DNA of 64,000 bases from a bacterium (GCA_029098125.1 JAQXNS010000003.1:2845-66844), one strand, 5' to 3'; counted from the stretch's first letter, positions 16,803-60,846 are shown. A program made the numbers and translations. Notes: generated by a model from the sequence alone, not told the origin.

Positions 16803-16983
16803 TTCTTTTGAAGAAAAGATGAAAAAACTAAATGAAATCGTCGAAAAATTAAGCGATGAATCAGTTTCTTTAAATGATTCTTTAAATTTATATGTTGAAG
16901 GAAAAGAGTTAATTAAAGAACTTTTTAAGTATATTAACGAAGCAAAGGAAAAAGTACAAGAAATAGATAAAAATACTAATTAG
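16792..16983 (+). CDS. xseB: Exodeoxyribonuclease VII small subunit
   Basis: MENNSFEEKMKKLNEIVEKL... is a typical XseB helical hairpin. The ORF-track start 16774 is TTG; the ATG at 16792 overlaps the xseA end by 11 nt. Its TAG stop (16981-16983) is the first TAG of repeat array 1. Confidence 0.8.
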   Translation: MENNSFEEKMKKLNEIVEKLSDESVSLNDSLNLYVEGKELIKELFKYINEAKEKVQEIDKNTN

Positions 16984-17052
16984 TAGATTTCTAGTAGGTT
17001 TCTAGTACATTTCTAGTACATTTCTAGTATGTTTCTAGTACATTTCTAGTAG
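16981..17052 (+). repeat. 11-bp CTAGTA tandem-repeat array 1 (about 6.5 units)
   Basis: tTAGTAGATTT CTAGTAGGTTT CTAGTACATTT CTAGTACATTT CTAGTATGTTT CTAGTACATTT CTAGTAG. CTAG starts at 16991, 17002, 17013, 17024, 17035 and 17046, an exact 11-nt period. Confidence 0.97.
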
Positions 17053-17075
17053 TAAAACATAAAAAATTTCTAAAA

Positions 17076-18287
17076 ATGAGCAAAATTATTTTACATATAG
17101 ATTTGAATCAATTCTTTGTTCGATGCGAAGAAATTAAAAATCCTTCATTAATTGGTAAGCCTGTTGCTGTTGGCGGCGATGGAAGAAGAGGGATTGTTTC
17201 AACTTGCTCCTATAAAGCTAGAGAATATGGGATTCATTCTGGAATGCCAATGTTTCAAGCAAAGATGCTTTGTAAAGATCTAATAATTACAGATGTTGAT
17301 TTCGAATATTATGAATTAATGTCTAAAGAATTCATCGATTATGTCAAAAAATATACTTACAAAATAGAGCAAATGTCTATTGATGAATGCTTTTGTGACA
17401 TTACAGAGGCTTATAATAAAATTGGAAATGGCGATATTTTAAAATTTTTAAAAGGTTTTCAAATTGGATTGTATAAAAAAACACAATTAAATTGTTCAAT
17501 TGGCGTTGCTTCAACAAAATTTTTAGCAAAAATGGGTTCTGATATTAAAAAACCAAATGGAATCACTATTATTAGAAAAAGAGATATTGAAAAAATTATT
17601 TTCCCATTACCTGTAAAAGATTTCTTTGGAATTGGCAAAAAAACTGCGCCACGACTTGAAAAAATTGGGTTTTCGACTATTGGTGAGCTATATTATGGCT
17701 TAAAAAATGATGATATTAGGTTAAAAGACTATTTTGAGAGCGGAAAAGATACAATAATTTCTCAACTTGAAGGCAATTCGAGCAACGAAATCTATTCGTC
17801 ATACGGTGATCCTAAATCAATTGGGCAAACTAGGACCTTAAATTACGATACAAATGATGCAGCGGTGATTAAAAAATTCCTCGAAAACATGATTGATAAC
17901 GTAATAAATGATTTTTTAAAGCTTAATATGCTTTGTAAAACTATTCAAATAACTTATAAAGATGCAGATTGTTCCAAAGATTTTAAAACAAAAACCTGTT
18001 CTAAATCATTTTCAGACTACACAAATGATAAAAAACAAATAAGAAATGCTGGTTTAGATCTTTTTACTGAAACTTACGACCACACAACAATTAGATTAAT
18101 TGGGTTTACTATTAAAAGTTTAAAAGCAAAACATGATGTTGCTGTCCAAATGACATTTGAAAACTTTGAACAGCATGAAAAAGAAAATAAAACTCAAATG
18201 ATAATAAATGATTTAAACAGAAAAGCAAAAAAGAAGATATTTTTTAGATTGAGCGACCTAACTGATAAACATTACGATGAAAATTGA
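17076..18287 (+). CDS. dinB: DNA polymerase IV (Y-family)
   Basis: N-terminus ILHIDLNQFFVRCEE..., SIDECFCD catalytic motif, and HhH GIGKKTAPRLEKIG. Confidence 0.9.
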   Translation: MSKIILHIDLNQFFVRCEEIKNPSLIGKPVAVGGDGRRGIVSTCSYKAREYGIHSGMPMFQAKMLCKDLIITDVDFEYYELMSKEFIDYVKKYTYKIEQMSIDECFCDITEAYNKIGNGDILKFLKGFQIGLYKKTQLNCSIGVASTKFLAKMGSDIKKPNGITIIRKRDIEKIIFPLPVKDFFGIGKKTAPRLEKIGFSTIGELYYGLKNDDIRLKDYFESGKDTIISQLEGNSSNEIYSSYGDPKSIGQTRTLNYDTNDAAVIKKFLENMIDNVINDFLKLNMLCKTIQITYKDADCSKDFKTKTCSKSFSDYTNDKKQIRNAGLDLFTETYDHTTIRLIGFTIKSLKAKHDVAVQMTFENFEQHEKENKTQMIINDLNRKAKKKIFFRLSDLTDKHYDEN

Positions 18288-19164
18288 TGAAGCTAAAAAT
18301 AAATTTTTAACTTTTTGCCAAATAGAAAAAGGTTTAACGAGCATAACCATTGAAGATTATAGGTTAGATTTTTTAAATTATGAAAAATGTTTTCCTGAAA
18401 TTAAAAGCGTAGAAGATATATCTATCGACGATTTATCGAATTTTGTTATATTTTTATCACTAAACGGGTTAAAAACAACATCAATTAGGCGAAAATTATC
18501 AACAATTAAGTCTTTTTATAGTTTTTTAGAAGAAGAAAACCTTGCTTCAAATATTGTCGATAAAGATGTTAGTGTTCAAAAAATTGCTAAAAATTTACCA
18601 AAATTTTTAACTAAAAATGAAATCCAAAAGCTATTAAATGCCACAAAAAAAGGTGATGAAGATGTTTTTGCTTATGCAGTTCTTAATCTATTATTTTCTT
18701 CAGGAATTAGAGTAAGCGAATTAGTAAATCTAAAGCTTAAAAATTTTAAAATTGAAGAAAAATTATTAATGGTTACTGGTAAAGGTATTAAAGATAGGTA
18801 CGTTCCATTAAGAGATGAAGCAATTTTTGCGATAAATGATTATTTAAAAAAGGTCAGAAATTTAATACCAAGGCCTTTAATTGACAAAGAAATCTTATTT
18901 TTAAATAAAAATGGCAGAAAATATAATAGAAATAGCATCTATTATTTAGTTAGGAAATATGCAAGTATTGCAAATATTCAAAAAGAAATTAGTCCGCATG
19001 TTTTAAGACATACGTTTGCAACTGTTTTAATAAATAATGGTGCAAGTGTAAGGCACGTACAAGAAATGTTAGGACATAAAAATGTCTCAACAACTGAAAT
19101 ATATACACATGTCGATACTAATCGTATTTTATCAACATATGATTTGTATTGGGACGACAACTAA
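18277..19164 (+). CDS. Xer-type tyrosine site-specific recombinase
   Basis: 295 aa with an N-terminal SAM-like core-binding domain. Catalytic R...HVLRHTFAT...GH...Y (LGHKNVSTTEIYTHV). Size and motifs fit XerC/XerD rather than a phage integrase. Confidence 0.8.
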   Translation: MKIDEAKNKFLTFCQIEKGLTSITIEDYRLDFLNYEKCFPEIKSVEDISIDDLSNFVIFLSLNGLKTTSIRRKLSTIKSFYSFLEEENLASNIVDKDVSVQKIAKNLPKFLTKNEIQKLLNATKKGDEDVFAYAVLNLLFSSGIRVSELVNLKLKNFKIEEKLLMVTGKGIKDRYVPLRDEAIFAINDYLKKVRNLIPRPLIDKEILFLNKNGRKYNRNSIYYLVRKYASIANIQKEISPHVLRHTFATVLINNGASVRHVQEMLGHKNVSTTEIYTHVDTNRILSTYDLYWDDN

Positions 19165-19188
19165 TTTATAATTTTTTTGGAGAAATAT

Positions 19189-20406
19189 ATGAAATTTAAA
19201 AGAATATTTTTAATAGTTACTGATAGTGCAGGCATAGGTAATGCTAGAGATGCTGCTAATTTTCATCAAGTAGGTAATCATAGTGATCTTGGTAGCAATA
19301 CATGGAAACATATTGCAGAAAGAATGGAAAATGGAATAAATGTACCAACACTTGAAGCTTTAGGTTTGGGCGATTTAGATGAAATTAATGGTGTAAAAGC
19401 TGGTTTGAATCACAAAAATTCTTATGCTGTTGCTCTAAATGAAGCAAGTAATGGCAAAGACACAATGACTGGTCATTGGGAAATGATGGGAATTCTAACA
19501 ACAAAGCCATTTCAAACTTTTACAGATACAGGCTTTCCAAAAGAATTAATTGATGAACTAGAAAAACGTACTGGTCATAAAATTATTGGCAACAAGAGTG
19601 CAAGTGGAACAGAAATTTTAAAAGAATTAGGCGAAGAATCAATCCGTGACAATTCTTTAATTGTTTATACAAGTAGTGATTCAGTTTTACAAATTTGTGG
19701 CCATGAAAAATATTTAGGTCTAGACAAATTATATGAATATTGTGAAATTGCACGTGAACTTTGTATGAAACCTGAATGGTTTGTTGGAAGAATCATTGCG
19801 AGACCTTATGTTGGTGAAAATAAAAACGAATTTAAGAGAACACCAAATAGACACGACTACACAGTTTCACCAAGTGGTAGAACTGTAATGGAAATTTTGA
19901 AAGAAAAAGGTTATTCAGTTAATTGTGTTGGGAAAATCAACGATATTTTTAACGGAGTAGGTGTTACAAGTACCGTTCATACAGTTTCAAATAGCGATGG
20001 AATGGCAAAAACATTAGATTTGGCTAAGGATTCTAACTTCAAAGAAGGTTTATGCTTTGTAAATTTAGTGGAATTTGACAGTGAATATGGCCATAGAAGA
20101 AATCCTGTTGGTTATGGAAAAGCACTTGAAACATTTGATAAAGAATTAGACGTACTTATCAAGAATTTACGTGAAAATGATTTATTAATGATAACAGCAG
20201 ATCATGGAAACGATCCAACTTGGGCTGGAACAGATCATACACGTGAAAAAGTCCCATTGATTATTTATTCAAAACTTATTAATGATGGTAAAAAATTGGA
20301 AGATAGAAATTCTTTCGCTGATATAGGAGATACAATTCTTAAAAATTTCAACTTAACTAAAGAAGAAGGTATGATCGGCGAAGCAATTGAAGAAGTTATT
20401 AGATAA
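19189..20406 (+). CDS. deoB: Phosphopentomutase
   Basis: MKFKRIFLIVTDSAGIG..., metal-binding TADHGNDPT...HTRE. The ORF-track start 19177 is TTG; the ATG at 19189 follows GGAGAAA. Confidence 0.9.
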   Translation: MKFKRIFLIVTDSAGIGNARDAANFHQVGNHSDLGSNTWKHIAERMENGINVPTLEALGLGDLDEINGVKAGLNHKNSYAVALNEASNGKDTMTGHWEMMGILTTKPFQTFTDTGFPKELIDELEKRTGHKIIGNKSASGTEILKELGEESIRDNSLIVYTSSDSVLQICGHEKYLGLDKLYEYCEIARELCMKPEWFVGRIIARPYVGENKNEFKRTPNRHDYTVSPSGRTVMEILKEKGYSVNCVGKINDIFNGVGVTSTVHTVSNSDGMAKTLDLAKDSNFKEGLCFVNLVEFDSEYGHRRNPVGYGKALETFDKELDVLIKNLRENDLLMITADHGNDPTWAGTDHTREKVPLIIYSKLINDGKKLEDRNSFADIGDTILKNFNLTKEEGMIGEAIEEVIR

Positions 20407-20408
20407 TT

Positions 20409-21365
20409 ATGAGAAATATTTATAGAATTTTAGCACTTTCATGTGCATGTTTTAGTTTTGTGTCATGCGCAAAAAGCAGCAATACAATAAAAACTAGTTT
20501 AATTATACCTAGCGGTGCACCAATTCTTGCTGCTTATAAAATTTTAACAAACTCTGATGCTTTTGATGTTGAAGTAAGATCCGATGCAACAACAATTCCT
20601 GCAGAATTTTTACTTGGAAATGCTAATTTCATCGTTTTTGATTCTATTAATGGTTCTAATATATTAAGTAAACAAGGTGAAAATGCTAAATATGAATATG
20701 TAAAAATGCTAACTGGAGGAAATTTTCATCTTTTAGCTTTTAATAAAGACACAATTGACATAAAAGATGAAGAAGTTGTTTATGGTTTTATGAGTAACTC
20801 AACACCAGGAAAATTATTTAGAGCAATTTATGGGGAAATTGGCTTTGATCAAAATTTTGATGGTGTAAGTGGTGTTAGAGACAGCTTACTTCAAATGAAT
20901 GAAAATTATGAAGTTAATGGTGTAAAAGTGGACTATGCAGTTGTTGCAGAGCCTGTTTCAACAGCAATAAAGTCAAAACTAAGCGCTAAAAACTTAAAAA
21001 TAACTGACATAAATCTTCAAAGTAAATTTAATGAAATCAAAGATGAATGGAAATTAGATTACATTTGTCAAGCTGGTTTGTTTGTAAATAAAGAATTTAA
21101 AAATTCAAATCCTAATGAATATTCAGCATTTATGAATGAAATAAATTCCGGAATTTCAAGTTTATTCACATCATTAGATACAGTAATTGCTACTTTTGAA
21201 GAAAAATTTGATGATGATGAATTATTTACAGCCAAATTTGGCTTTGCTAAAACCTTAGTTAAGGGTGTTCAAGGCGAAAATTCTTCAAAGAATGGCTTTG
21301 GAATAGTTCCAAACAAAGTAGAAATTAGAGTAGAAGACATTACAACTTTCTCATCCTTATTATAA
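20409..21365 (+). CDS. Lipoprotein, probable ABC-transporter substrate-binding protein
   Basis: Signal peptide with a lipobox-like FVS|C (Cys20). Sits 2 nt upstream of a permease gene. Fold assignment is not verifiable by eye. Confidence 0.5.
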   Translation: MRNIYRILALSCACFSFVSCAKSSNTIKTSLIIPSGAPILAAYKILTNSDAFDVEVRSDATTIPAEFLLGNANFIVFDSINGSNILSKQGENAKYEYVKMLTGGNFHLLAFNKDTIDIKDEEVVYGFMSNSTPGKLFRAIYGEIGFDQNFDGVSGVRDSLLQMNENYEVNGVKVDYAVVAEPVSTAIKSKLSAKNLKITDINLQSKFNEIKDEWKLDYICQAGLFVNKEFKNSNPNEYSAFMNEINSGISSLFTSLDTVIATFEEKFDDDELFTAKFGFAKTLVKGVQGENSSKNGFGIVPNKVEIRVEDITTFSSLL

Positions 21366-21367
21366 TA

Positions 21368-22138
21368 ATGAAGATATTTCCTTTTCTTAAAAAATATTCG
21401 AAATATATTTATGAATCATTAGGCGTAATTTTTCTTCTAGTTTTAGTTGAAATTATTGCAATTTTAATAAATGATCCATTGCTTTTTCCTGGAATTGATA
21501 AAATTTTCCTTGGATTAGGTACAATTATGTCAAATAAATCTTTTTATTTGGCTTTTTTTGAGTCTTTTTTAAGAACATTTATTGCTATTTTTTCTTCATT
21601 TATATTGGCTTTTGTTTTGGGGCTGATTGCAGGGTTATTTTCTAAAGTAAAATATTTTTTATCACCTCTTGTAGGTTTATTAAAATTAGCTCCAACGCCT
21701 TGCATCGTTTTTGTTTTATTTCTTGTGTCAAAAGGTGATGCCTACATTACATCACTAGTTATTACATTTTTGGTTGTTTTTCCTATTTTATATCAATCTT
21801 TTGTTAGTGGAATTGAAAATATTGACCCTTATATTAAATCTTCTTTAGTCATTGAAGGATTTTATACAAGAAAAACAATTTTTAATGTCATTGTTCCTCA
21901 AGCTAGCCCATATCTTTTATTAGGAGTGCTAAATTCACTAGCTTTAGGTGTTAAAGTGTCTATTGTTAGTGAAATACTTGTTGGTAGTGATTCAATATGG
22001 GGATTAGGTCGATTAATCTATGTATATAAAATTGATGCAAATTTCGATTTAATGATCGCAATGACGTTAATTATCGTCATTTTCTTTGCGTTTATTGACT
22101 TATTAACTATTGTTTTTAAAAAAATCTTAAAAAAATAA
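21368..22138 (+). CDS. ABC transporter permease (binding-protein-dependent, TauC/SsuC-like)
   Basis: 256 aa with about 6 TM segments and an EAA-like loop IEGFYTRKTIFNVIVPQASPYLLLG. No ATPase gene is adjacent. Confidence 0.6.
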   Translation: MKIFPFLKKYSKYIYESLGVIFLLVLVEIIAILINDPLLFPGIDKIFLGLGTIMSNKSFYLAFFESFLRTFIAIFSSFILAFVLGLIAGLFSKVKYFLSPLVGLLKLAPTPCIVFVLFLVSKGDAYITSLVITFLVVFPILYQSFVSGIENIDPYIKSSLVIEGFYTRKTIFNVIVPQASPYLLLGVLNSLALGVKVSIVSEILVGSDSIWGLGRLIYVYKIDANFDLMIAMTLIIVIFFAFIDLLTIVFKKILKK

Positions 22139-22143
22139 AAAAA

Positions 22144-22189
22144 TTTTTAAAAAAATTAATTTTGACTCCTTTTATTTATGTGAAAGGAG
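22144..22189 (+). promoter_or_regulatory. 46-bp leader, copy A, with SD-sequestering hairpin
   Basis: TTTTTAAAAAAATTAATTTTGACTCCTTTTATTTATGTGAAAGGAG is identical to the reverse complement of 47291-47336. CTCCTTT (22166-22172) can pair with AAAGGAG (22183-22189), which is the SD for ATG 22199. Confidence 0.75.
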
Positions 22190-22198
22190 GTTAAAAGT

Positions 22199-22759
22199 AT
22201 GTCAGATAAAAGTGATAATGAAAAAAGATATTTCATTGTTGAAAAAACAAGCAGCAAACTTGTTGAACAAATGGTATGGACTGAAGAAGCAATTAAAAAA
22301 GAGAACTATAATGAAGATAAACATAATTCCTTCTCTTTGAGAAAAGGTTTTGTTTATAAATATATTAAAAGAATTTCGTCCAACAATCGTATAATTTATG
22401 GTTTTTGTGTTGTTTTAGCTGATTCAGCTAAATATGATTCTCACGTACTAATTTGTCCTATTTATCCATTTATGGATAGTATTAACAAAATCAGTGTAAA
22501 TATTGGAGTAGTGCCACAACTTGATGGCACATGCGAGATAATTGGAAGTTTATGCGAAATAAATTTTGCAAGTAAAACAAGATTCATATTAAATAAAGAA
22601 AATGATATTGAACCTGTTCCTGTTTGTTATCTAAACAAAGATCAATATTTGAAATTACTTTTATCGTACAAAGATTTTATCTGCGCAATTGTTAAGAGCA
22701 ATTCTTCAATTCGCGTGTCTTATAGAAATCAAGATAATGAAATGACTTATACGTGCTAG
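22199..22759 (+). CDS. Hypothetical cytoplasmic protein (186 aa)
   Basis: Strong SD (AAAGGAGG). No motif recognised with confidence. The central region faintly resembles a PemK/MazF-like beta-barrel pattern (...YGFCVVLADS...HVLICPIYPF...). It is the last + strand gene before the strand switch. Confidence 0.55.
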   Translation: MSDKSDNEKRYFIVEKTSSKLVEQMVWTEEAIKKENYNEDKHNSFSLRKGFVYKYIKRISSNNRIIYGFCVVLADSAKYDSHVLICPIYPFMDSINKISVNIGVVPQLDGTCEIIGSLCEINFASKTRFILNKENDIEPVPVCYLNKDQYLKLLLSYKDFICAIVKSNSSIRVSYRNQDNEMTYTC

Positions 22760-22809
22760 ATTATTTTTAATAAACATATACCTTCCAAAAAATATCTATA
22801 ATTGCCAAA

Positions 22810-22875
22810 TTAGTAGGTTTCTAGTAGGTTTCTAGTACATTTCTAGTAGATTTCTAGTAGATTTCTAGTAGGTTT
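22810..22875 (+). repeat. 11-bp CTAGTA tandem-repeat array 2 (6 units)
   Basis: tTAGTAGGTTT CTAGTAGGTTT CTAGTACATTT CTAGTAGATTT CTAGTAGATTT CTAGTAGGTTT. Lies between convergent genes. Confidence 0.97.
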
Positions 22876-22927
22876 TTCAGATTTTCTGATTTAAAATTTG
22901 TTTAACCTACTTTTTTATTTTTTGAAT

Positions 22928-22955
22928 TTTTTACTTAATATATATTATGCGAAGT
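22928..22955. other. Candidate dif (Xer recombination) site
   Basis: TTTTTACTTAATATATATTATGCGAAGT. The right 19 nt (AATATATATTATGCGAAGT) match my recollection of B. subtilis dif (AATATATATTATGTAAACT) at 16/19. The left arm matches poorly. Located at the gene-orientation switch. Confidence 0.3.
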
Positions 22956-22975
22956 AGTTTTGAACATTAAAAAAG

Positions 22976-23596
22976 CTATAAATAGTACTCAACGCACTCT
23001 TTTGTATACTTATTCATCAATGTCGAACTATCTTCTTTTACTTTAGATTTTAGAAATTTCAGGTTTTCATTCAAAACTAAAATAAAACCTTTTTCATAGT
23101 CGTCTAACATAGCATCTATCATAAACTTACTATCGTATCCTCTTCTTGGATCGATTTTATCGCATGCATAGACGATTTTTTGATAAGTGTCCATTTCTCT
23201 ATTTCCGCTACAATGATATTTAACTGCATCAAGTATTTCTTTGTCAAAAATTCCAAAATCTCTCATTAGTATTAATTCGCCTAAAAACTGATGATATGAA
23301 AAATCAGGCATATCAATGTCATTTTTATAATATTTGTCCATTAAATTGTAAGATTTTTCGCTAGAAATATCTTTTGCAATATCGTGAAGCAGTCCAATTT
23401 CATAATATTTTTTAGGATTTGGTAGATTGTTTGCTATTGCCACCCTATATGAAAGCTCCGCTACTGACATTGAGTGCAAAAGTCTTTTTTTGTTAATGTA
23501 TGTAAGCAAAAAGTTGAAGAGTTCTTCTGCTACTTCAACTTGATTTTTGCTAAATTTTATATGTTCAAAGAGAATTTTTTCGTTTAATTTATCCAT
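22976..23596 (-). CDS. yqeK: HD-domain phosphohydrolase YqeK (Ap4A hydrolase family)
   Basis: HSMSVAELS...GLLHDIAKD HD motif. Last gene of a yqeG-yqeH-yhbY-yqeK cluster. Confidence 0.8.
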   Translation of the reverse strand: MDKLNEKILFEHIKFSKNQVEVAEELFNFLLTYINKKRLLHSMSVAELSYRVAIANNLPNPKKYYEIGLLHDIAKDISSEKSYNLMDKYYKNDIDMPDFSYHQFLGELILMRDFGIFDKEILDAVKYHCSGNREMDTYQKIVYACDKIDPRRGYDSKFMIDAMLDDYEKGFILVLNENLKFLKSKVKEDSSTLMNKYTKECVEYYL

Positions 23597-23598
23597 TT

Positions 23599-23910
23599 TT
23601 ATTTAGATAACACAATTCTATTGGAAATTTTATCGTTTGGCTTATATAAAAGGATTGAATTCCCAATTACTTGCACTACTTCACAGTTTAATAAACTAGT
23701 TAAATCAATTATTAATTCATTTTTGCTTTTTTGAGCCGTTGAGCTTTTTAGAAAACAAATTTTAACCAATTCCCTTGTATTAAACGCTTTGTTAATCATT
23801 TCTACAACGTTTTTATAGATTAAATCCTTTCCTACATTTACTTTTAAAATAGATTTTTCGTTTTGTTGAGCGAATCTTTTAATTTCTGCTTTATTTTTAT
23901 TACTTAACAT
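23599..23910 (-). CDS. yhbY: YhbY/YqeI CRM-domain RNA-binding protein
   Basis: 103 aa. The pattern ...KAEIKRFAQQ...ILKVNVGKDLIYKNVVEMINKAFNTRELVKI fits the CRS1/YhbY domain, and the position fits. Confidence 0.7.
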   Translation of the reverse strand: MLSNKNKAEIKRFAQQNEKSILKVNVGKDLIYKNVVEMINKAFNTRELVKICFLKSSTAQKSKNELIIDLTSLLNCEVVQVIGNSILLYKPNDKISNRIVLSK

Positions 23911-23912
23911 AA

Positions 23913-25040
23913 TTACATTTTACTACGTGATGTATACACGTATACTCCTTTTGGTACTGAAATTCTAAATGTTTGAGCACTTCCTTCAATTGTTATCCAT
24001 CCTAAACCAGCAATTCCGATATCTCTTTTACCGATTTGTTCAATTTCTAGATCGTAAATATCAAAATCTTTGAAGGTATTGTGTTTTTTGCTTGAAGGTT
24101 GATATTTATTACGTTCAATTTGCTTTTTGAAATATGTATCATTGTTGTTTTTATGAGTTTTTATATTAACTTTTGAAGAAACATATACATATGCATTCAT
24201 TTTTCCTTTTGAAAGTAACTCGACTTGACATAAACTACCAAATAAAATAGCTGTATTTTTGTTTAAAACAACTTTTTTCGCACTTACAGATTCATTCGGA
24301 ATGATAATATTCTGCATTTGTCTATCGATTTTCGAAAGTATTGAATTATCAATTGATGTTCCTGGTGTCTCATAAATATAGTTTTTATCACTAATTGGAA
24401 TGCTATATCCTATTAATTCAGTGTCTGTAAACTTATGAGTTGTGATTACTTTATTGGTTTTATTTGAGTAATTTTTAATTAAACTTTCAATTAAAGCTGA
24501 TTTACCACTTGTACTCGCCCCTAAAAAATAAACATCTCGATTATTACTATATTTTAAAATCGCATTATACATTTCATGAATGCCATAAGTTTTATTTACT
24601 GTTGATGTTGTAACAACATCTAAAACATTTAATTTAATTTCGTTTAGTTTTTGTTTTACATATTCTTTAATTTTTTCTTCTTTAAGATCAACTGGTAGCA
24701 AATCTCTCTTATTTCCAACCACTAAAATATCTAAACCGTTTAATAATTTGATTATTTTGTTAATAAACGAACCTTCAAAACTAAATAAGTTAACTACGTA
24801 AACGACTAAGGCATTTTTTCTTTTAATTTCTTCTAATACCTTCGTATATTCTTCATCAAATGATGCTTCTTTTGGGCCGTTAGAGAATTTTTCCGTTGAA
24901 AAACAATTGTTGCATAACAAAAATCCTTCAGGATATTTATTAATAATGTTGAAATCGATATATCCTTCTTTTGTCTCATCTTCGCATTGAAGGATAGCTC
25001 CACAATGATAACACCTTTGAATTTTTGATAGTTTGTCCAT
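23913..25040 (-). CDS. yqeH: Ribosome biogenesis GTPase YqeH
   Basis: N-terminal zinc ribbon CYHCGAILQC...CNNC and a circularly permuted GTPase (NKRDL ... GASTSGKS). Confidence 0.85.
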   Translation of the reverse strand: MDKLSKIQRCYHCGAILQCEDETKEGYIDFNIINKYPEGFLLCNNCFSTEKFSNGPKEASFDEEYTKVLEEIKRKNALVVYVVNLFSFEGSFINKIIKLLNGLDILVVGNKRDLLPVDLKEEKIKEYVKQKLNEIKLNVLDVVTTSTVNKTYGIHEMYNAILKYSNNRDVYFLGASTSGKSALIESLIKNYSNKTNKVITTHKFTDTELIGYSIPISDKNYIYETPGTSIDNSILSKIDRQMQNIIIPNESVSAKKVVLNKNTAILFGSLCQVELLSKGKMNAYVYVSSKVNIKTHKNNNDTYFKKQIERNKYQPSSKKHNTFKDFDIYDLEIEQIGKRDIGIAGLGWITIEGSAQTFRISVPKGVYVYTSRSKM

Positions 25041-25561: not shown

Positions 25562-25640
25562 ATATACATTATAATATATAATTCATTTTATTAAAATATT
25601 TGTAGGTAAAATCAATCTTTACATTTCAAAAAATAAGTCT

Positions 25641-25714
25641 AACTACTAAAAACCTACTAGAAATGTACTAGAAACCTACTAGAAATGTACTAGAAACCTA
25701 CTAAAAAACTACTA
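25641..25714 (-). repeat. 11-bp CTAGTA tandem-repeat array 3 (5 clean plus 2 decayed units, minus orientation)
   Basis: Forward strand reads ...CTACTAA AAACCTACTAG AAATGTACTAG AAACCTACTAG AAATGTACTAG AAACCTACTAA AAAACTACTA. The GG and CA units alternate strictly. Lies in the divergent gap between yqeG and ORF 25763. Confidence 0.97.
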
Positions 25715-25762
25715 TACGCAAAAAATATGTATTTTTTATTCAGTTTAGTTTAATATATAGAT

Positions 25763-31501: not shown

Positions 31502-31578
31502 CTAGTAGGAAACTAGTAGGTTTCTAGTACATTTCTAGTACATTTCTAGTAGGTTTCTAGTACATTTCTAGTACATTA
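31502..31578 (+). repeat. 11-bp CTAGTA tandem-repeat array 4 (7 units)
   Basis: CTAGTAGGAAA CTAGTAGGTTT CTAGTACATTT CTAGTACATTT CTAGTAGGTTT CTAGTACATTT CTAGTACATTA. Begins 2 nt after the plsY TAG stop and lies upstream of the plsY terminator. Confidence 0.97.
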
Positions 31579-31615
31579 AAAACCATGTGGAAATCTACAT
31601 AAAACATTGCTTATA

Positions 31616-31645
31616 TTAAAAAAAGTCGAATTAATTCGACTTTTT
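31616..31645. terminator. Bidirectional Rho-independent terminator
   Basis: A-run, then the palindrome GTCGAATTAATTCGAC (31625-31640), then TTTTT. Confidence 0.65.
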
Positions 31646-48279: not shown

Positions 48280-48356
48280 CTATCTACTAGAAATGTACTA
48301 GAAACATACTAGATATATACTAGAAACCTACTAGAAATGTACTAGAAATCTACTAG
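48280..48356 (-). repeat. 11-bp CTAGTA tandem-repeat array 5 (7 units, minus orientation)
   Basis: Forward strand reads CTATCTACTAG AAATGTACTAG AAACATACTAG ATATATACTAG AAACCTACTAG AAATGTACTAG AAATCTACTAG. The last unit contains the TAG stop (48353-48355) of the upstream pseudogene. Confidence 0.97.
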
Positions 48357-49657: not shown

Positions 49658-49675
49658 TTTTAAATTTTGACACTG

Positions 49676-51726: not shown

Positions 51727-51729
51727 AGT

Positions 51730-52910: not shown

Positions 52911-52949
52911 ATTTTTTCTCTTTCAGCATTAAATTCTAACATTTAAAAG

Positions 52950-54101
52950 TTACTTTTTAAATGCTCTTTTAAATTTGTCAAAAAAATTGTCGCCTGCTTT
53001 TGAAGCTTTTTTGTATGCTTCAAGAGCTGCTTTTTGATCTTTGTTTAAATATGTTGGTGTTTTTAAGTTTATATGCACATATTCATTGCCATATGTTCCA
53101 TTTCTTAAATCTTTTGCACCTTTTCCCTTAATTGATAATACATCATTTGGTTGAGTGCCAGCTGGAATTTTTAATTCACTTTCTCCATAAACTGTTGGAA
53201 CGCTAATTGTTGTTCCTAAGCAAGCATCAACAAAGTCAAGTGGAATATCTATATGGATATCGTTTCCATCACGGGTGAAGAAATCATGTTTTGCAACGAT
53301 AACTTCAATATAAAGATCTCCATTTGATCCACCATTGTATCCTCTATCGCCTTTTCCAGCGACTCTGATTTGTTGTCCACTTTGAATACCTGCTGGAATT
53401 TTGACATTTATATCTTTTTTAACTTTTGTATAACCTTGACCATTGCATTTTGGACAAGAAGTTTTAACTTTTCTACCAGTTCCATGGCAATCCGGACATA
53501 TATTTTCAGATTGAATGATGCCAAAAATGCTTCTTTGCTGAGTTAATATCCTACCTCTACCATGACATCTTGGACATTCTGTGAATTCAGTGCCATTTAA
53601 TGCGCCTGTTCCTTTACAATCTGAGCAAGTTTCTTCATATGTTAATGGAATTGTGACTTCTTTACCGTTTATTGAATCCATGAAGCCAATTTTTATTCTC
53701 ATTAATGAGTCATCACCTCTTTGTGGGTCATTTGAGCGAGTTCTAGATTGAGAGAATCCCCCACCAAAACCACCAAACATCTTACTCAAAATGTCATTTA
53801 AATCATCAAATGAGCCACCATTGAAGTTAAATCCTTCAAATCCGCTGCCACTAAATGGGTTTGCACCACCTGCAGTTTGATCAAATGCTGCACTTCCGTA
53901 TGTATCGTAACGTTTACGTTTATCTGGATCGCTTAAAACACTGAATGCTTCAGAACATTCTTTAAATTTTTCAGCATCACCAGTTTCTTTATTATCTGGA
54001 TGATATTTTTTAGCTAATTGTCTATAGGCTTTTTTAATTTCGTCTTGAGTTGCAGATTTATTTACGCCTAAAACATCATAATAATCTCTTTTTTCTGCCA
54101 T
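52950..54101 (-). CDS. dnaJ: Molecular chaperone DnaJ
   Basis: J domain (DYYDVLGV...HPD), G/F region and four CxxCxGxG repeats. The ATG at 54101 follows AGAGGTGA. The ORF-track GTG at 54110 lies inside the SD. Confidence 0.93.
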
Positions 54102-54127
54102 TTTTATCACCTCTTATTAACTTAGTA

Positions 54128-54149
54128 AAGGGAAGTTTGCACTTCCCTT
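54128..54149 (-). promoter_or_regulatory. Intercistronic hairpin between dnaK and dnaJ
   Basis: AAGGGAAGT (54128-54136) / ACTTCCCTT (54141-54149), a 9-bp stem with a 4-nt loop and no clear U tract. Possibly an attenuator or a stabiliser. Confidence 0.45.
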
Positions 54150-54162
54150 ACCTTTAATTTGA

Positions 54163-56004
54163 TTAGTCTGTGAAATCTGCATCAATGACATCATCGTCTT
54201 TTTTAGAATTTGATGTAGATTGATGAGTTTGTTCTTGAGATTCATTACCAGGATTTGGATTACTGCCTTGTTGAGCAGTTTGTTGTTGCATGAATTCAGC
54301 AGCTTTTTCTAAATCGTTGATTTTTGATCTCAATGTGTTCATATCGTTGTTATCAAGAGCTGTTTTTAATTCATCTCTTAATTTTTGTGTTTCTTCTTTT
54401 TGTTTTGCATCGATTGAATCGCCTTTTTCTCTTAAAGCTTGGTCGATTGATGCGATGTAACTTTCAGCTTTATTCTTTAATTCGATGTCAGCTTTACGTT
54501 TTTCATCTTCTTCTTTGTTCATTTCAGCTTCTCTAACCATTCTATCAATTTCTTCTTTTGATAAACCGTTTGAACCACTGATTGTAATTTCTTGTTCTTT
54601 TTGTGAATCAAGATCTTTTGCACTGACTTTAACAATACCGTTGACATCGATACTGAATGTAACTTCGATTCTTGGAGTTCCTCTTGGTGCTGGTTTAATT
54701 CCTGATAATTGGAAGTGACCTAATAACTTGTTATCATGAGCCATTGGTCTTTCACCTTGATAAACCATGATATCAACAGCAGGTTGATTGTCAGCTGCAG
54801 TTGAGAAAATTTGTGATTTTGTTGTAGGGATTGTAGTATTTCTTGGAATTAATGGAGTCATAACGCCACCCATTGTTTCAATACCAAGTGTTAAAGGTGT
54901 AACATCGAGAAGAATAACATCTTTAACATCACCACTTAAGATACCACCTTGATATGCTGCACCGATTGAGACAGCTTCATCTGGATTAACACTTAAGTTA
55001 GGTTTTTTACCAGTAATACGAGCAACTAAGTTTTGAACAGCTGGCATTCTGATTGAACCACCAATTAATAAAACTTCATCAATATCAGAATATGATAATT
55101 TAGCATCTTGAATTGCTTTTTCAAGAGGTGTAATACATCTATCTAAAAGATGTTTTGTCATTGCTTCAAAATTTGCTCTTGTTAATGTTGTTTCAAAGCT
55201 TATAGGACCATTTGCTCCCATTCCGATAAATGGCAATGAAATAGTTGTTGAAAGATTGCTTGAAAGTTCAATTTTTGCTTTTTCTGCTGCATCTTTATAT
55301 CTTTGAAGAGCCATTTTGTCGCAAATATCTTGATTAAATTCAATCTTGATTTGTGCTCTGATCCATTCAGCAACGACATTATCCCAGTCATCGCCACCTA
55401 ATTTGTTATCACCACTTGTTGAAACAACTTCGAATGTACCATCACCGATATCAAGAATTGAAACATCTAATGTACCACCACCTAAGTCGAATACACAGAT
55501 TTTTTCACTCTTATCTTTACCTAAACCATAAGCAAGAGCTGCTGCTGTTGGTTCGTTGATGATTCTAACAACATCAAGACCTGCAATAGTTCCAGCATCT
55601 TTAGTTGCTTGTCTTTGTGCATCGTTGAAGTAAGCTGGACATGTAATAACTGCTTTTTTAATTTCGTGACCAATGTTCTTTTCAGCATATGATTTCATAT
55701 ATGCAAGAACTTTTGCACTAATTTCTTGTGGTGTAAAATCTTTATTAATTGAGTTAATGTGAACTTTATAATCACTACCCATATATCTTTTAATACTTGA
55801 AACTGTATCTGGGTTAGTAATTGCTTGTCTTTTACCTGCATTACCAATAATAACTTCACCATTTGCTTTAAATCCGACAACACTTGGAGTTGTCATTGTT
55901 CCTTCTGGGTTTGGGATAACCTTAACAGTTCCATCACTTTGAAGATAACTAACAACTGAGTTTGTTGTACCTAAATCGATACCTAAAATAATTTCTTTTG
56001 CCAT
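54163..56004 (-). CDS. dnaK: Molecular chaperone DnaK (Hsp70)
   Basis: [20 protein letters not shown], and other full Hsp70 signatures. SD AGGAGG. Confidence 0.97.
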
Positions 56005-56031
56005 AATTTAATCCTCCTGATTAATTTATAT

Positions 56032-56622
56032 TTATTCTTTAGCTTGAGATTCTTCTTCTCTTTTGTCCTCTGCTTTTTCATCCTTAGGACTTGGATGTTT
56101 ACTAACTGCTACCATTGCAGCTCTGATTAAGTGATCGTGAAGTTTATAACCTTTCATTCTAACTTCTGTAATTAAGTTTTCTTCGCCATCACTTTCTTTT
56201 GTTTCAACGGCATGCATAGTATTTTCATCGAATTTATCACCAATTTTTGGTTCAAGAATTTGAATTCCTTCATTTTCAAGAACACTCAACAACGAATTGT
56301 GAACATACTCAAATCCAATTAAGTAGTTTTTCATTTCAGTTGTAGTTGGTTTATTTTTTAAAGCCATATCGAATGCATCTAAGATACTTAATAAATTTTC
56401 AGCGAATCCTTCAATTCTGTATTTTAGAGATTCTCTATGATCTTTTTCGATCTGTTTTCTTAAATTTGCCATATCAGCATAAGCTTTATAATACTCATTT
56501 TTCCAATGTTCAGCGTCTGATTTGGCTTTTAAAAGTTCTTCTTCAACATTTCTTTCTTCTTTTTTGTCTTCTTTTTGAGTAGCTGATGTTTTTTCTTGAA
56601 CTTTTTCTTCTTTATTTTCCAT
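56032..56622 (-). CDS. grpE: Nucleotide exchange factor GrpE
   Basis: Coiled-coil followed by a beta-domain (...GDKFDENTMHAV...). The ATG at 56622 follows GAAGGAG and overlaps the hrcA end by 11 nt. The ORF-track start 56658 is less likely. Confidence 0.88.
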   Translation of the reverse strand: MENKEEKVQEKTSATQKEDKKEERNVEEELLKAKSDAEHWKNEYYKAYADMANLRKQIEKDHRESLKYRIEGFAENLLSILDAFDMALKNKPTTTEMKNYLIGFEYVHNSLLSVLENEGIQILEPKIGDKFDENTMHAVETKESDGEENLITEVRMKGYKLHDHLIRAAMVAVSKHPSPKDEKAEDKREEESQAKE

Positions 56623-57661
56623 CTGTGCTTTCTCCTTCTTTTTCTTGAATACCTTCATATGAAAAGTGCTCCATTATTTTACTTGCAACATATTCTAATG
56701 TATTAATTACATTTGAATAATCCATTCTTGTAGGCCCAATAATTGCGATTTTCCCCATTGATTTTCCGTTAGCGATTAAATCTTTTGAGATAACTCCAAC
56801 ATCTTCATAATGTTCTTCGACATCACCACAATTTATTAAGATATCATTTCCAGCTTGTTCAATTATGCTAATGATATCTTGCTTTGAGTTGAATAATCCG
56901 AATAGTTTTTTAAGTTCTTCTGGATTATCTTTGAATTCAGGTTGAGTCAATAAGTTTTCTCTTCCATAAATTTCTCCGCTTCTTTTTGAAGCGATATCGT
57001 AGAATGTTTTGATCAATAAATCATAAATGAAGTTGTAGTTTGTTATATATTCACTAAGAATTGGCTTGATATTGGACATTTTTTCAACTAATAAGCTTAC
57101 TTTTGTTCCTTTTAAACGTTCATTTAGTAAACTTACACATTGCTTGATGTCTTCAATATTTAAATCATCCTTAAGATTGAATGTTTTGTTTTCAACATAA
57201 CCTTTGTCGGTAACAAATATTGCAGTTACTGTGAAACTATTGATTGGTACAAGTTGAATGCTAACAAGTTTTTCTTCATCAGCACTTGGTCCAAGAACCA
57301 CACTTGCTAGATTTGTCATGTGTGAAAGAATTTCACAACTTTCTTTTAATACTTCATCTACTGAAGTTGTTTTTGAGAAGATTGTGTTAATCTCGTTTTT
57401 GACATTTTCATCAATTTGTGAGTTTCTTAAGTTTTCAATGTAATATTTATAACCTTCATTTGAAGGAACTCTTCCACTGGATGTATGAGTTTTTTCTAAC
57501 AAACCTTCTTTTTCAAGTGCATTCATCTCATTTCTGATTGTCGCGCTTGAAATATTTAAGTTGTATTTTTGAATTAGATAGTTCGAACCAACTGGTTCAG
57601 CTGTCTTAATAAAATCTTCAACTATTAATTTTAATAAAGTTTGTTTTCTAGTAAGCCCCAT
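56612..57661 (-). CDS. hrcA: Heat-inducible transcription repressor HrcA
   Basis: N-terminal winged helix (MGLTRKQTLLKLIVEDFIKTAEPVGSNYL...SSATIRNEM..LEKEGLLEKTHTSSGRVP). The ATG at 57661 follows GAGGT. The ORF-track start is GTG 57679. Confidence 0.9.
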   Translation of the reverse strand: MGLTRKQTLLKLIVEDFIKTAEPVGSNYLIQKYNLNISSATIRNEMNALEKEGLLEKTHTSSGRVPSNEGYKYYIENLRNSQIDENVKNEINTIFSKTTSVDEVLKESCEILSHMTNLASVVLGPSADEEKLVSIQLVPINSFTVTAIFVTDKGYVENKTFNLKDDLNIEDIKQCVSLLNERLKGTKVSLLVEKMSNIKPILSEYITNYNFIYDLLIKTFYDIASKRSGEIYGRENLLTQPEFKDNPEELKKLFGLFNSKQDIISIIEQAGNDILINCGDVEEHYEDVGVISKDLIANGKSMGKIAIIGPTRMDYSNVINTLEYVASKIMEHFSYEGIQEKEGESTDGK

Positions 57662-57672
57662 AATCACTACCT

Positions 57673-57699
57673 CTAGCACTCATTTTCTTTAAGTGCTAA
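57673..57699 (-). promoter_or_regulatory. CIRCE operator 1
   Basis: CTAGCACTC-ATTTTCTTT-AAGTGCTAA versus the consensus TTAGCACTC-N9-GAGTGCTAA. Lies between the -10 box and the hrcA SD. Confidence 0.85.
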
Positions 57700-57703
57700 C
57701 TAT

Positions 57704-57731
57704 ATTATAAAGACTTATCTAGCACTGTCAA
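57704..57731 (-). promoter_or_regulatory. Sigma-A promoter of the hrcA-grpE-dnaK-dnaJ operon (TTGACA-16 nt-TATAAT)
   Basis: Minus-strand TTGACA (57726-57731) and TATAAT (57704-57709). The -35 box is embedded in CIRCE 2. Confidence 0.7.
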
Positions 57732-57745
57732 CAAAAAAGTGCTAA
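57719..57745 (-). promoter_or_regulatory. CIRCE operator 2
   Basis: CTAGCACTG-TCAACAAAA-AAGTGCTAA, a second inverted repeat with a 9-nt spacer, 19 nt from the first. Confidence 0.75.
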
Positions 57746-57764
57746 AAATTTTAAAATTTCTTTT

Positions 57765-58883
57765 TTAGAACAATTTTTCTAAAACAAAATCTAAGAGCAT
57801 TATGCCTTCATCAGTGCAAAACAACCTATTATTTTCTATTTTTATTAAGTTTCTATTTATTAAATCGCTAATTTCTGACTTTTTTAAGTCTAAAATGTCG
57901 ATATTATATCTATTTTTGAATGTTTCTAACAAAAAACCTTCCTGAAGTCTTAAATTGCATAGCAAAAAGTATTCAATATCATCTTTTTGTGACACTTCTT
58001 CTTTAACGCCATCTCTTATTCCTTTTATATATTTAGTTAAGGATGCTGAATTTTTATATCTAATATTATTAATATATCCACTCGCACCAACTCCAAGTGC
58101 AATATATTCTTCATTTTTCCAATAAGTTATATTGTGTTTTGACTCAAAACCTGGTTTTGCAAAATTACTAACTTCGTATCTTGAAAAACCATTTTTTCTG
58201 AAATTATCTAAAATATAATCGTAATATTTTCTTAGAATTTCATCTGATGTTTCCTTATATCCTTTTATATTATATAAGGATGGACCATCGATAATTAAAG
58301 AATATGTTGAAATATGAGGTATATCTAATTTTAAAAATACCTCGACATCATGTTTTAATTCTTCAAAAGTTTCATCTAAAATTCCATAAATCAAATCAAC
58401 ATTAATATTTGAAAAATATTTTTTTGCAAGTTTAATTTTTGAAGGTATATCAATGGCATAATCTCTATCAATTAGTTTAAGTAATCTTGCGTTAAAAGTT
58501 TGAATTCCGATAGAAATTCGATTAATTTTGTTATTTTTTAATGTTTTTAATATATTTTCGTCAATATTTTCAGGATTTAATTCAATTGTAAATTCATAAC
58601 TGTCTTCTAATAATGGAGTAATTTTTGAAAATAAATCACAAATTTGGCTAGAAGACAAAATAGACGGTGTTCCACCGCCTATATATATTGTTTTGAATTT
58701 ATATCTTTTTTGAATTAATTGATCTAAATCTTTCTTTAATTCTACAAGATATTGATTTAGAAATGATTCGTTGTAAATAAATTTAACAAAATCGCAATAA
58801 GGACAAATTCTTTTGCAAAAAGGAATATGAATGTAAAGACTATTTATCTTGTGATTCATTTTTTTGATTTTTAAATTCTTCAA
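57765..58883 (-). CDS. hemW: Radical SAM heme chaperone HemW (HemN-like)
   Basis: LYIHIPFCKRICPYCDF (CxxxCxxC), GGGTPS, and the position between lepA and hrcA. The alternative start is ATG 58859. Confidence 0.88.
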   Translation of the reverse strand: MKNLKIKKMNHKINSLYIHIPFCKRICPYCDFVKFIYNESFLNQYLVELKKDLDQLIQKRYKFKTIYIGGGTPSILSSSQICDLFSKITPLLEDSYEFTIELNPENIDENILKTLKNNKINRISIGIQTFNARLLKLIDRDYAIDIPSKIKLAKKYFSNINVDLIYGILDETFEELKHDVEVFLKLDIPHISTYSLIIDGPSLYNIKGYKETSDEILRKYYDYILDNFRKNGFSRYEVSNFAKPGFESKHNITYWKNEEYIALGVGASGYINNIRYKNSASLTKYIKGIRDGVKEEVSQKDDIEYFLLCNLRLQEGFLLETFKNRYNIDILDLKKSEISDLINRNLIKIENNRLFCTDEGIMLLDFVLEKLF

Positions 58884-59091
58884 ATTGTTTTTTTGTTTCT
58901 GGATCTTCTACTTCTTCTAAAATTCTGCTTAAATTTTCATCAGCAGCTTTTTCTAAGTCGACTTCTTCGCTGCTATTTTTATTTAATATAAACTTTCTTA
59001 AAAGAAAAACTCCAAGAGCGATTAATCCAAAAATCCCAAGAATTAATAATAAAATAGCCCAGGATTCATTGTACCATTCTGTAAAAATCAT
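58840..59091 (-). CDS. Small hypothetical membrane-anchored acidic protein (83 aa)
   Basis: Single N-terminal TM segment (WAILLLILGIFGLIALGVFLL) followed by a Glu/Lys-rich tail. Overlaps the hemW start. Confidence 0.45.
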   Translation of the reverse strand: MIFTEWYNESWAILLLILGIFGLIALGVFLLRKFILNKNSSEEVDLEKAADENLSRILEEVEDPETKKQFEEFKNQKNESQDK

Positions 59092-59103
59092 CTTTTTAAA
59101 CTC

Positions 59104-60690
59104 CTAATTACGTTTGATTGGGACATAAACAAACTTTTTGCCCATAATTTCTTTCTTATAATAACCTAAAACTACCAAATCGTTCATGCTTTTTCTAGCA
59201 GTTTCGTATGCACAACCAATTTCTTTTTGATATTGATTAACTGTATAGAACATACCAATTGTACAATGACGTGCATAGAAATATGCTTGCCCGTGTGTTA
59301 TTAATGGGTTCATTTCCATTAAATGATTTTCAAGTCTCATTGCTTCTTCATCAGTTAATCCAGTTGGAACGTTAGAAATTGCAATATTTTTTGAGAAAAC
59401 AACAGTCTTGTTTTGTGGAACAAGTTCTTTATCGTTTTGAATTAATTCAGGAATTTCAATTCTTCTTGGTGTATCAACCTTGTTTTCTTGTGGTTTTTCT
59501 TCAATTTTTACTTCTTTTTCAACAGGTTTTGCTATTATTTCGACTTCTTGAACCTTTTTTTCTTGTTCTAAAGTGTCTTTTTTAGCTTGAACTTCTTCTA
59601 AACTTGTTGGAATGACTGTATTTAATTCTTCTTTTGTAATACCAACTTTTTCAAATAATGGTTCTTTTGTGAGAAAACTATTAGTTGGTTCTGACTGATA
59701 TAAGTCTTTTTTTACTGATAAATTCTCAGAAAAAACCATTTCATCAGCGACATTTGCTAAAATTTTGTCTGTTTTTGCTAAGAAAAAGTCTAATAAGTAT
59801 GTTAAATCGTAGTTTGCTTGACATTCTTGAATTACTTTTTCGACTTCATCTTTACAATTTAAGATACAATCAAAGTTTAAAGTTGCAGCAACACCTTCTA
59901 TATCGTTATAAGCTAAGACTTTTTTGAAGAATAATAATGCAATTTCTTCATTATATGTGCTAAATGGTTTAACAAAGTAAATATAATAGAAAGTGCAAAC
60001 AGCCTTAGCAAATAAATCTAAATCATTATTAGAATAATCTAAAAAATCAATTAAATTATCGATATAACTTTCAATTTTTTGAGGTGGGACACCTAAGCGA
60101 AGAACTTTATATGAGTATTCGCCATTACTTCCACTGTAATTTCCTGTTCTATAATATTCGGTTAAATCATCAGTTCCCATTAAATATGTATAAAATTCAC
60201 CAATTGTATCTGCAGAAATATCTTTTAAACAATTAAATTCAATCTCTTTTAAGCAGTTAAAATATCTTTGAATGATAACTTTATCATATGATAATGCATT
60301 CCCGCTTTCTCTAATTATATTGTCGTAAACAGATTCTTCAGCTTCAATTCTATAAGATTTACTAATTTCTTTAAGAATTCTTCTGTAACTGATCAATCGA
60401 TAATTATCGATATTGTAATCTCTTTGAAGTTTAGCGTATTTATTTGATAAATTTGATAATTTTCTTTCAATTGTGTTTAATTTTGCATTAATTGATGGAG
60501 TAAAACAAATTGAAAAATTTGTATTGTCAATATGTTTTAAATTGATTGGTTTCATAAATTGTTGTCTATAAGATAAGATTTGAGTCCAAATCCCATCAAT
60601 TAAGTTTGTTTTCATTTCAACAACAACATCATGTTTTGTAGCATATTTTTCTTCGCTAAATTTTTTGATTTTTTCATTCACGATTGCCAT
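59104..60690 (-). CDS. Fic/Fido-like protein with a degenerate active-site motif and a C-terminal winged-helix-like domain
   Basis: 528 aa. The region FAKAVCTFYYIYFVKPFSTYNEEIALLFF resembles the Fic core, but HPFxxGNGR is replaced by KPFSTYNEE. The C-terminus (...YETARKSMNDLVVLGYY...) looks like a wHTH. All judged by eye. Confidence 0.4.
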   Translation of the reverse strand: MAIVNEKIKKFSEEKYATKHDVVVEMKTNLIDGIWTQILSYRQQFMKPINLKHIDNTNFSICFTPSINAKLNTIERKLSNLSNKYAKLQRDYNIDNYRLISYRRILKEISKSYRIEAEESVYDNIIRESGNALSYDKVIIQRYFNCLKEIEFNCLKDISADTIGEFYTYLMGTDDLTEYYRTGNYSGSNGEYSYKVLRLGVPPQKIESYIDNLIDFLDYSNNDLDLFAKAVCTFYYIYFVKPFSTYNEEIALLFFKKVLAYNDIEGVAATLNFDCILNCKDEVEKVIQECQANYDLTYLLDFFLAKTDKILANVADEMVFSENLSVKKDLYQSEPTNSFLTKEPLFEKVGITKEELNTVIPTSLEEVQAKKDTLEQEKKVQEVEIIAKPVEKEVKIEEKPQENKVDTPRRIEIPELIQNDKELVPQNKTVVFSKNIAISNVPTGLTDEEAMRLENHLMEMNPLITHGQAYFYARHCTIGMFYTVNQYQKEIGCAYETARKSMNDLVVLGYYKKEIMGKKFVYVPIKRN

Positions 60691-60758
60691 GATATTTCTC
60701 CGTTAAAGTTAAAAATATTATAACACATGTATTCTGATTTTAAAGATAATTTTTGAAA

Positions 60759-60846
60759 ATTATTACTAGAAATGTACTAGAAACCTACTAGTTATCTACT
60801 AGAAACCTACTAGAAATGTACTAGAAACCTACTAATTATCTACTAA
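60759..60846 (-). repeat. 11-bp CTAGTA tandem-repeat array 6 (8 units, minus orientation)
   Basis: Forward strand reads ATTATTACTAG AAATGTACTAG AAACCTACTAG TTATCTACTAG AAACCTACTAG AAATGTACTAG AAACCTACTAA TTATCTACTAA. Lies between lepA and the Fic-like gene. Confidence 0.97.

Follow-up and report, generated by a model that had tools for sequence, protein, structure and literature searches.

What do short arrays of a repeated hexamer do between the genes of a bacterial chromosome, and what determines the direction in which they point? This question is raised by a 64,000-nucleotide stretch of bacterial DNA (GCA_029098125.1 JAQXNS010000003.1:2845-66844; this whole stretch is called the window in the following), which carries six tandem arrays of the hexamer CTAGTA. 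An earlier note, made from the sequence of the window alone, had proposed that the polarity of these arrays strictly follows local transcription. We analyzed the arrays in the window, in the whole assembly and in related genomes and found them gathered around the replication terminus, where they tend to converge on the dif site; neither orientation rule, by genes or by dif, is strict.

The six arrays were recovered by Tandem Repeats Finder, by a scan for CTAGTA and by direct reading, with a period of 11 bp and on the strands +, +, -, +, - and -, so that their places, strands and flanking genes as given in the earlier note were borne out. CTAGTA occurs 43 times in the window compared with 16.3 ± 3.9 expected occurrences, none of 100 shuffles reached this count, and the excess falls almost wholly inside the arrays. 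The unit is CTAGTA(GG/CA)TTT, that is (C/T)TAGTA followed by 5 nt, and is present 6-8 times per array; units with GG and CA often alternate, resulting in a 22-bp super-period, and the end units are decayed to TTAGTA or ATAGTA. Neither shared flanks nor a mobile-element structure were found around the arrays. The flanking genes include xseB (Pfam Exonuc_VII_S), the open reading frame (ORF) 22199-22759, plsY, a split oxidoreductase gene, lepA and yqeG. The arrays and the dif site between them are:

16980-17051, + strand: array 1, 7 units; 5.9 kb left of dif, pointing toward dif

22810-22875, + strand: array 2, the dif-proximal array, 6 units; on the XerD-arm side of dif, ~60 bp away and pointing toward it, in the convergent gap at the terminus

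22930-22955, - strand: dif site, with XerC arm ACTTCGCATAA on the - strand, spacer and XerD arm; the + strand reads TTTACTTAATATATATTATGCGAAGT

25644-25715, - strand: array 3, 7 units, between a parC-like gene (887 aa) and yqeG; 2.7 kb right of dif, pointing toward dif

31502-31573, + strand: array 4, 7 units; 8.6 kb right of dif, pointing away from dif

48285-48356, - strand: array 5, 7 units; 25 kb right of dif, pointing toward dif

60764-60846, - strand: array 6, 8 units; 38 kb right of dif, pointing toward dif

Several arrays directly adjoin the ends of genes. The stop codon of xseB is the TAG of the first unit of array 1, which ends 24 nt before the start of dinB. Array 4 begins 2 nt past the stop codon of plsY in a gap convergent with efp, and the split oxidoreductase ORF takes its stop codon from array 5, which is followed by deoC at a distance of 50 nt. 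Array 6 lies 39 nt past lepA and 73 nt before a Fic-like gene of 528 aa.

The window is part of contig C3, which makes up 6.8% of the assembly of this genome (G000), which belongs to an uncultured representative of the Bacilli and is small (1.43 Mb, 28% GC, 140 contigs). Its LepA is 74% identical to LepA of metagenome-assembled genomes (MAGs) from the ruminant gut. Gene calls were made with a simple caller based on ORFs and codon usage. Although size and GC content recall the Mollicutes, TGA is read as a stop in this genome: the Mollicutes code 4 was rejected since in-frame TGA occurs only at the very ends of genes and read-through with table 4 adds few residues, so that table 11 applies. For surveys, the pattern YTAGTA-N5-YTAGTA-N5-YTAGTA (at least 3 units) was used, with the same pattern read backwards as control. 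The terminus sample of the relatives consisted of the contigs carrying plsY, where the relatives' pattern matches concentrate.

The window spans the replication terminus, marked by the dif site at the place (~22 kb) where the GC skew turns from + to - and the gene orientation switches as well. A single dif of the form ACTTCGCATAAT-N4-ATTATGTAAA was found in each of 16 relatives' contigs, exactly at the + to - turn of the skew and at gene convergence. In one relative (G107), a single contig comprises 879 kb of the 1.0-Mb genome, with dif at 184 kb and dnaA at 714 kb, i.e. diametrically opposite (529 kb apart). A xerD-like recombinase gene is located close to the dif site of the window (18277-19164).

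The arrays cluster within about ±50 kb of dif, as is expected of the sites of any replication fork trap. In the whole assembly, 17 arrays were counted, all of them intergenic, although non-coding DNA makes up only 11.4%. Seven are located on C3 and 10 on other contigs (binomial p = 7e-5), two of which, C33 and C135, correspond by synteny to regions 45-100 kb from dif in relatives. The same clustering was observed in G107 (5/7 arrays within 53 kb around dif, of ~1.0 Mb; p = 8e-6), G051 (9/13 on a 113-kb contig, of ~1.6 Mb; p = 2e-8), G066 (10/15 on a 212-kb contig, of ~1.2 Mb; p = 4e-5), and G018 (all 6 within 114 kb, of ~0.8 Mb; p = 8e-6; binomial tests throughout).

The array pattern is present in 38/60 genomes of the genus and in 34/151 genomes of the order, the latter representing 14/44 genera and at least three families, while the reversed control gave 0 matches in these >200 genomes. 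Grouping of sites by homology of both flanking genes resulted in 14 orthologous site groups, some of which span families, with positions retained between families at ~50% protein identity. Orthologous arrays were found in the xseB|dinB gap of five species, in the parC|yqeG gap of four species and in the lepA|Fic-like gap of four species, where more distant relatives keep 2-3 TTAGTA units. Further arrays occur in the dif gap itself in five genera and after plsY in six genomes of two families, there always co-oriented with plsY; nine smaller site groups exist besides. In most of 30 plsY loci of the genus, the stop codon is followed by 3-4 TTAGTA units, TGTGGA(A/T)AAC and a terminator. The hexamer and the 11-bp period are constant between species, while the 5-nt spacers and the unit number vary; this genome has 6-8 units with homogenised spacers at every locus compared with 3-4 units in relatives. 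A variant form was noticed in genus g40 (G124, G120, G132; L207, L208, L206), where many copies of TTAGTA-N5-TTAGTAC are followed ~8 nt further on by inverted (A/T)ACTA(A/T). These copies are dense within 300 bp on both sides of dif, yet the genus scores zero for arrays of at least 3 units. A metagenome scan with a species-specific 28-mer of the repeat gave no matches.

With respect to orientation, the observation of the earlier note that each of the six arrays is co-oriented with a gene ending upstream of it was correct, but as evidence it is weaker than it appears. Arrays 2 and 4 lie in convergent gaps, where either orientation matches an upstream-ending gene, and therefore only arrays 1, 3, 5, and 6 are informative (4/4 co-oriented; two-sided p = 0.125). 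Array 3 indeed matches the orientation of yqeG, and it also sits 274 nt downstream of the co-oriented parC-like gene. Array 4, which had been regarded as the case that separates transcription from replication, does not separate them because of its convergent gap. Moreover, the window straddles the switch of skew and gene orientation, so that gene and replication direction are confounded almost everywhere in it. For the census, co-orientation was scored relative to the nearest gene whose 3′ end faces the array. Among the 17 arrays of the genome, 14 could be scored and 7 of these are co-oriented, 6/7 on C3 vs. 1/7 on other contigs (Fisher p = 0.03); on the latter, five arrays are antisense between co-directional genes. 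Relative to the sign of the local GC skew, which is noisy on short contigs, 5 arrays are co-oriented and 12 anti-oriented. The strict polarity deduced from the window is thereby essentially refuted for this genome. A seventh array on C3, outside the window (C3:84553-84624, window-equivalent 81709-81780; 7 units, + strand), points away from dif at a distance of 59 kb to its right; the end of its nearest terminating gene, on the minus strand, is 9 nt away, so that the array is anti-oriented to this gene.

The relatives, many of which are fragmented MAGs, allowed the two orientation rules to be compared. On their 16 terminus contigs 50/65 arrays, and in all 17 genomes 57/79, are co-oriented with the nearest terminating gene. 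These raw numbers are inflated because inherited orthologous sites were counted repeatedly. After an approximate collapsing of orthologs to 48 independent sites, with the dif gap set aside, the ratio of co-oriented to anti-oriented sites was 27:17 (p = 0.17), and 17:11 in tandem gaps only. Orientation toward dif was found for 52/70 arrays in the raw count of the relatives' terminus contigs and C3, and for 26/36 independent sites (p = 0.011) after the same collapsing, a bias that fades beyond 50 kb (5/10). Where the two rules are in conflict, four site groups side with dif and two with the gene, both of the latter being the plsY site. The preference for transcription over replication direction expressed in the earlier note thus did not hold up; if anything, the relation to replichore and dif is the better predictor of orientation, and what looks like a coupling to transcription results largely from inherited geometry. 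The tidy rule that arrays follow transcription reflects the local situation of this one window, with its two convergent gaps and its genes co-oriented with replication. Gene co-orientation would there be mainly a by-product, as genes, replication and arrays all converge on dif.

The array next to dif is part of a conserved composite. In every family examined (16 contigs, three families), the XerD-arm side of dif carries one array at a distance of 100-160 bp, directed toward dif. It is usually followed by TGTGGATAAC or TGTGGAAAAC, with an offset of +19 nt (genus g24) or +30/31 nt (family f7). By its sequence this motif is a canonical DnaA box, and the same variant occurs clustered in several copies in the rpmH-dnaA intergenic region of relatives, the presumed origin. 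The combination of dif-proximal array and box is conserved in families f1, f3, and f7, and genomes that are negative by the 3-unit pattern keep a version with one or two units and the box at the same place beside dif (g18, g19, g20, g21, g22, g25, and g26). In this genome, the box beside dif is lost and only a degenerate copy is kept after plsY, followed by a hairpin:

31586-31594, + strand: degenerate DnaA-box-like motif TGTGGAAAT, 12 nt after array 4, where relatives have TGTGGA(A/T)AAC

31620-31645, + strand: intrinsic-terminator-like hairpin after array 4 and the DnaA-box-like motif

Array 4 is thereby located between the plsY stop codon and a terminator. In total, a DnaA box lies within 100 nt of 14/75 arrays, so most arrays are without a box, and no arrays were found in the oriC regions examined.

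From these features of the sequence, we infer that the arrays are protein-bound DNA arrays marking the terminus, to which we assign a probability of roughly 55%. The 11-bp period places successive hexamers on one face of the helix, a hallmark of cooperative protein-DNA binding, so that 3-8 direct repeats of (C/T)TAGTA one helical turn apart could serve as cooperative sites for a sequence-specific candidate protein. The arrays would mark the terminus region: the innermost one lies on the XerD-arm side of dif at 100-160 bp, with a DnaA box as its partner in relatives, and further ones, mostly directed toward dif, occupy fixed intergenic gaps within ~50-100 kb to both sides. Its most likely role would be that of a polar barrier or organiser for machines converging on the terminus, which might be a polar fork barrier in the manner of a Ter trap, a barrier or unloading site for translocases of the SMC/FtsK type, or a DnaA-linked regulatory site.

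Several observations weigh against this reading. About 28% of the independent sites are directed away from dif. The conserved plsY array, only 8.6 kb distant, is one of them, a layout that a tight fork trap would not tolerate. The off-terminus arrays of this genome mostly oppose genes and GC skew. Furthermore, stop codons are very often found directly beside arrays (-4 to +9 nt) and terminators after them, so that the arrays are probably transcribed. No binding protein was found among the candidates tested, which were RTP, the OmpR family and ORF 22199-22759. RTP (Pfam PF02334) gave no hit with E ≤ 1 in this genome and, across 27 genomes of the order, none that passed the cut-off, with a positive B. 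subtilis control. An OmpR/ArcA-type binder, the kind best known for direct repeats at 11-bp spacing, was rejected since Trans_reg_C (PF00486) is missing in the five array-bearing genomes G107, G145, G134, G137, and G129. ORF 22199-22759 directly precedes the dif-proximal array and encodes 186 aa without a Pfam domain; family f7 lacks it but does carry arrays. Fast-evolving homologues of this ORF occur at the same dif-adjacent place in G051, G066, G107, and G019, and its middle part resembles, by eye, a MazF/PemK-type fold.

An explanation by transcription is unlikely in our estimation. According to it, a sense array at the 3′ end of the upstream gene would act as an RNA element in the 3′-untranslated region or operon spacer, or as a roadblock for RNA polymerase. 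It would account for the many arrays that begin at a stop codon or a few nucleotides from one, with a terminator hairpin to follow, for the raw co-orientation of 57/79, and for the arrays of xseB, lepA, and plsY staying at the 3′ end of the upstream gene across genera. In addition, the UC dinucleotide every 11 nt on the sense strand resembles Rho-loading spacing. Anti-oriented arrays, however, abut stop codons too, co-orientation is automatic in convergent gaps, the five antisense arrays between co-directional genes stand against it, and the excess of co-oriented arrays is absent in the census of this genome (7/14) and not significant after collapsing. The earlier note had also suggested a strand-specific function, and oriented protein binding remains plausible as such, while a structured RNA does not: in window positions 14000-64000 no Rfam 15 covariance model matched at gathering score on either strand, and the predicted folds of the sense RNA resemble those of shuffled sequences (z from 0.45 to -1.5 for five of the six arrays; z = -3.05 for array 2; none convincing). 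A function in RNA or termination would also leave the clustering around dif unexplained.

Quite unlikely, too, is a DnaA-linked regulatory locus resembling datA or DARS, in which the arrays and box near dif and plsY would bind DnaA and an accessory protein, and replication of the terminus would alter DnaA availability or signal completion of the cycle. In favour of such a locus, two conserved arrays are followed on their 3′ side, in different families, by an oriC-type box at constant spacing; the order of TAG-rich repeats 5′ of a same-strand DnaA box, which is the arrangement of the DnaA-trios at origins (PMC10316083), speaks for it as well. Basal unwinding by DnaA-trios was nevertheless rejected: the TAG pairs recur every 11 nt instead of as contiguous 3-nt repeats, the locus is the terminus instead of oriC, and the box is present at only two conserved arrays. 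The scarcity of boxes near arrays in general, the lack of arrays in the oriC regions and the loss of the dif box from a genome with expanded arrays also argue against regulation by DnaA. Neutral or selfish minisatellites that persist between genes and owe their orientation to slippage or insertion bias are very improbable. The expansion of units at every locus of this species to 6-8 with homogenised spacers would fit them, and perfect tandem repeats of 11-mers containing YTAGTA are a common background in viral contigs; exact-pattern matches in unrelated phyla and in 95 viral contigs were nearly all of this kind and were discarded. The arrays analyzed here, by contrast, keep hexamer and period in spite of diverging spacers and occupy orthologous positions in different families; moreover, the reversed control is empty and the sites cluster tightly at dif.

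As putative protein-bound terminus sites, the arrays can be compared with known systems. To our knowledge, only two fork traps (Tus-Ter and RTP-Ter) and a few organising systems (MatP-matS and XerD-XDS) exist, each narrow in range, and most Firmicutes are assumed to be without a fork trap. RTP-Ter of B. subtilis likewise consists of a few polar sites clustered to either side of the terminus, mostly opposed to each other, and a Ter site is ~30 bp long with several binding units; few discrete, mostly convergent sites and such a footprint would be points in favour of a fork trap, by analogy. The array core TTAGTAC is the reverse complement of GTACTAA, which is contained in the B. subtilis Ter consensus KMACTAANWNNWCTATGTACYAAATNTTC (PMC3317982), a likeness that may lend weak support to terminus sites. 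The consensus as a whole is not matched, as only the 7-mer GTACTAA is shared and the repeat spacing is 11 bp vs. 7, 9 or 16 bp in Ter. The arrays differ further in having 3-8 direct units instead of overlapping A and B sites, about a quarter of sites in the 'wrong' orientation, and no RTP-family protein in the genomes searched. Tus-Ter of E. coli likewise has polar sites over the terminus half of the chromosome. Its Ter, however, is a single 23-bp site bound by a monomer, without sequence similarity to the arrays, and Tus is, as far as we know, confined to Proteobacteria.

Ter sites also occur beside the origins of the plasmids R6K and R1, and comparably two phage contigs carry an array upstream of replication genes. 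These two related contigs (IMG/VR, 25-26% GC) were the only ones with host-like arrays and variable spacers (L098:1631-1669 and L100:10880-10918). Both carry a CTAGTA-N5 array of 4 units, conserved together with ~100 nt of flanking sequence and located ~170 nt upstream of different replication modules, of which one comprises a Phg_2220_C organiser with an IstB-like loader, the other a DnaB-type helicase. By analogy, this position might weakly favour the interpretation as terminus sites. L100 also carries a TGTGGATAA box ~190 nt upstream.

Among the organising systems, matS/MatP and XDS resemble the arrays as small sets of discrete, terminus-only sites marking chromosome organisation or SMC unloading. 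The arrays, however, are tandem and asymmetric, unlike the palindromic matS without polarity, and show no likeness to the local XerD arm, whereas XDS look like half of a dif site. KOPS/SRS (FtsK/SpoIIIE) share the orientation bias toward dif on both arms, and differ as single 8-mers skewed genome-wide. A KOPS-like mechanism is unlikely, as short motifs outside the arrays show little skew toward dif and intergenic copies none: in 0.93 Mb of terminus contigs, hexamers were distributed 624:559 (p = 0.06), TTAGTA alone 480:415 (p = 0.03), intergenic hexamers 51:62, and 2-unit copies 13:11. The architecture of a hexamer or heptamer plus spacer, repeated 2-5 times at an 11-bp period and bound head-to-tail on one face, is also known from OmpR/PhoB/ArcA operators and from plasmid and phage iterons, the latter often adjoining a DnaA box. 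Such operators and iterons belong to promoters or origins, while the arrays occur where genes end and in convergent gaps. TTAGTA is also reminiscent of what we take to be the FapR half-site; the arrays are direct, not inverted, repeats.

Conserved, mostly convergent arrays centred on dif are a concrete candidate for the way in which a large uncultured lineage defines its terminus. More tentatively, TTAGTA arrays and their candidate protein, convergent on dif and with a DnaA box in the innermost site, may possibly form an undescribed terminus system in an order of small-genome gut Bacilli. If true, this would add a third independently evolved fork trap or terminus organiser after Tus-Ter and RTP-Ter, which might couple the completion of replication to DnaA. 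For practical use, at least three YTAGTA-N5 units near dif provide a simple signature for finding termini in fragmented MAGs.

Two minor observations concern genes next to arrays or related repeats. On contig C33 of this genome (~10120-10160, outside the window), direct repeats GTGGAAGAAAGTGGAAGAAAGTG immediately precede mraZ, and G066, G018, and G107 have similar ones; with their 10-bp period they look like the operator repeats of MraZ. An anti-oriented TTAGTA-type array is located 270 nt further upstream. Finally, in three species dinB starts 23-26 nt after the array preceding it and, unlike neighbouring genes, shows no recognisable Shine-Dalgarno sequence (window 17052-17078), which suggests an unusual translation initiation or a deliberately low expression of dinB.

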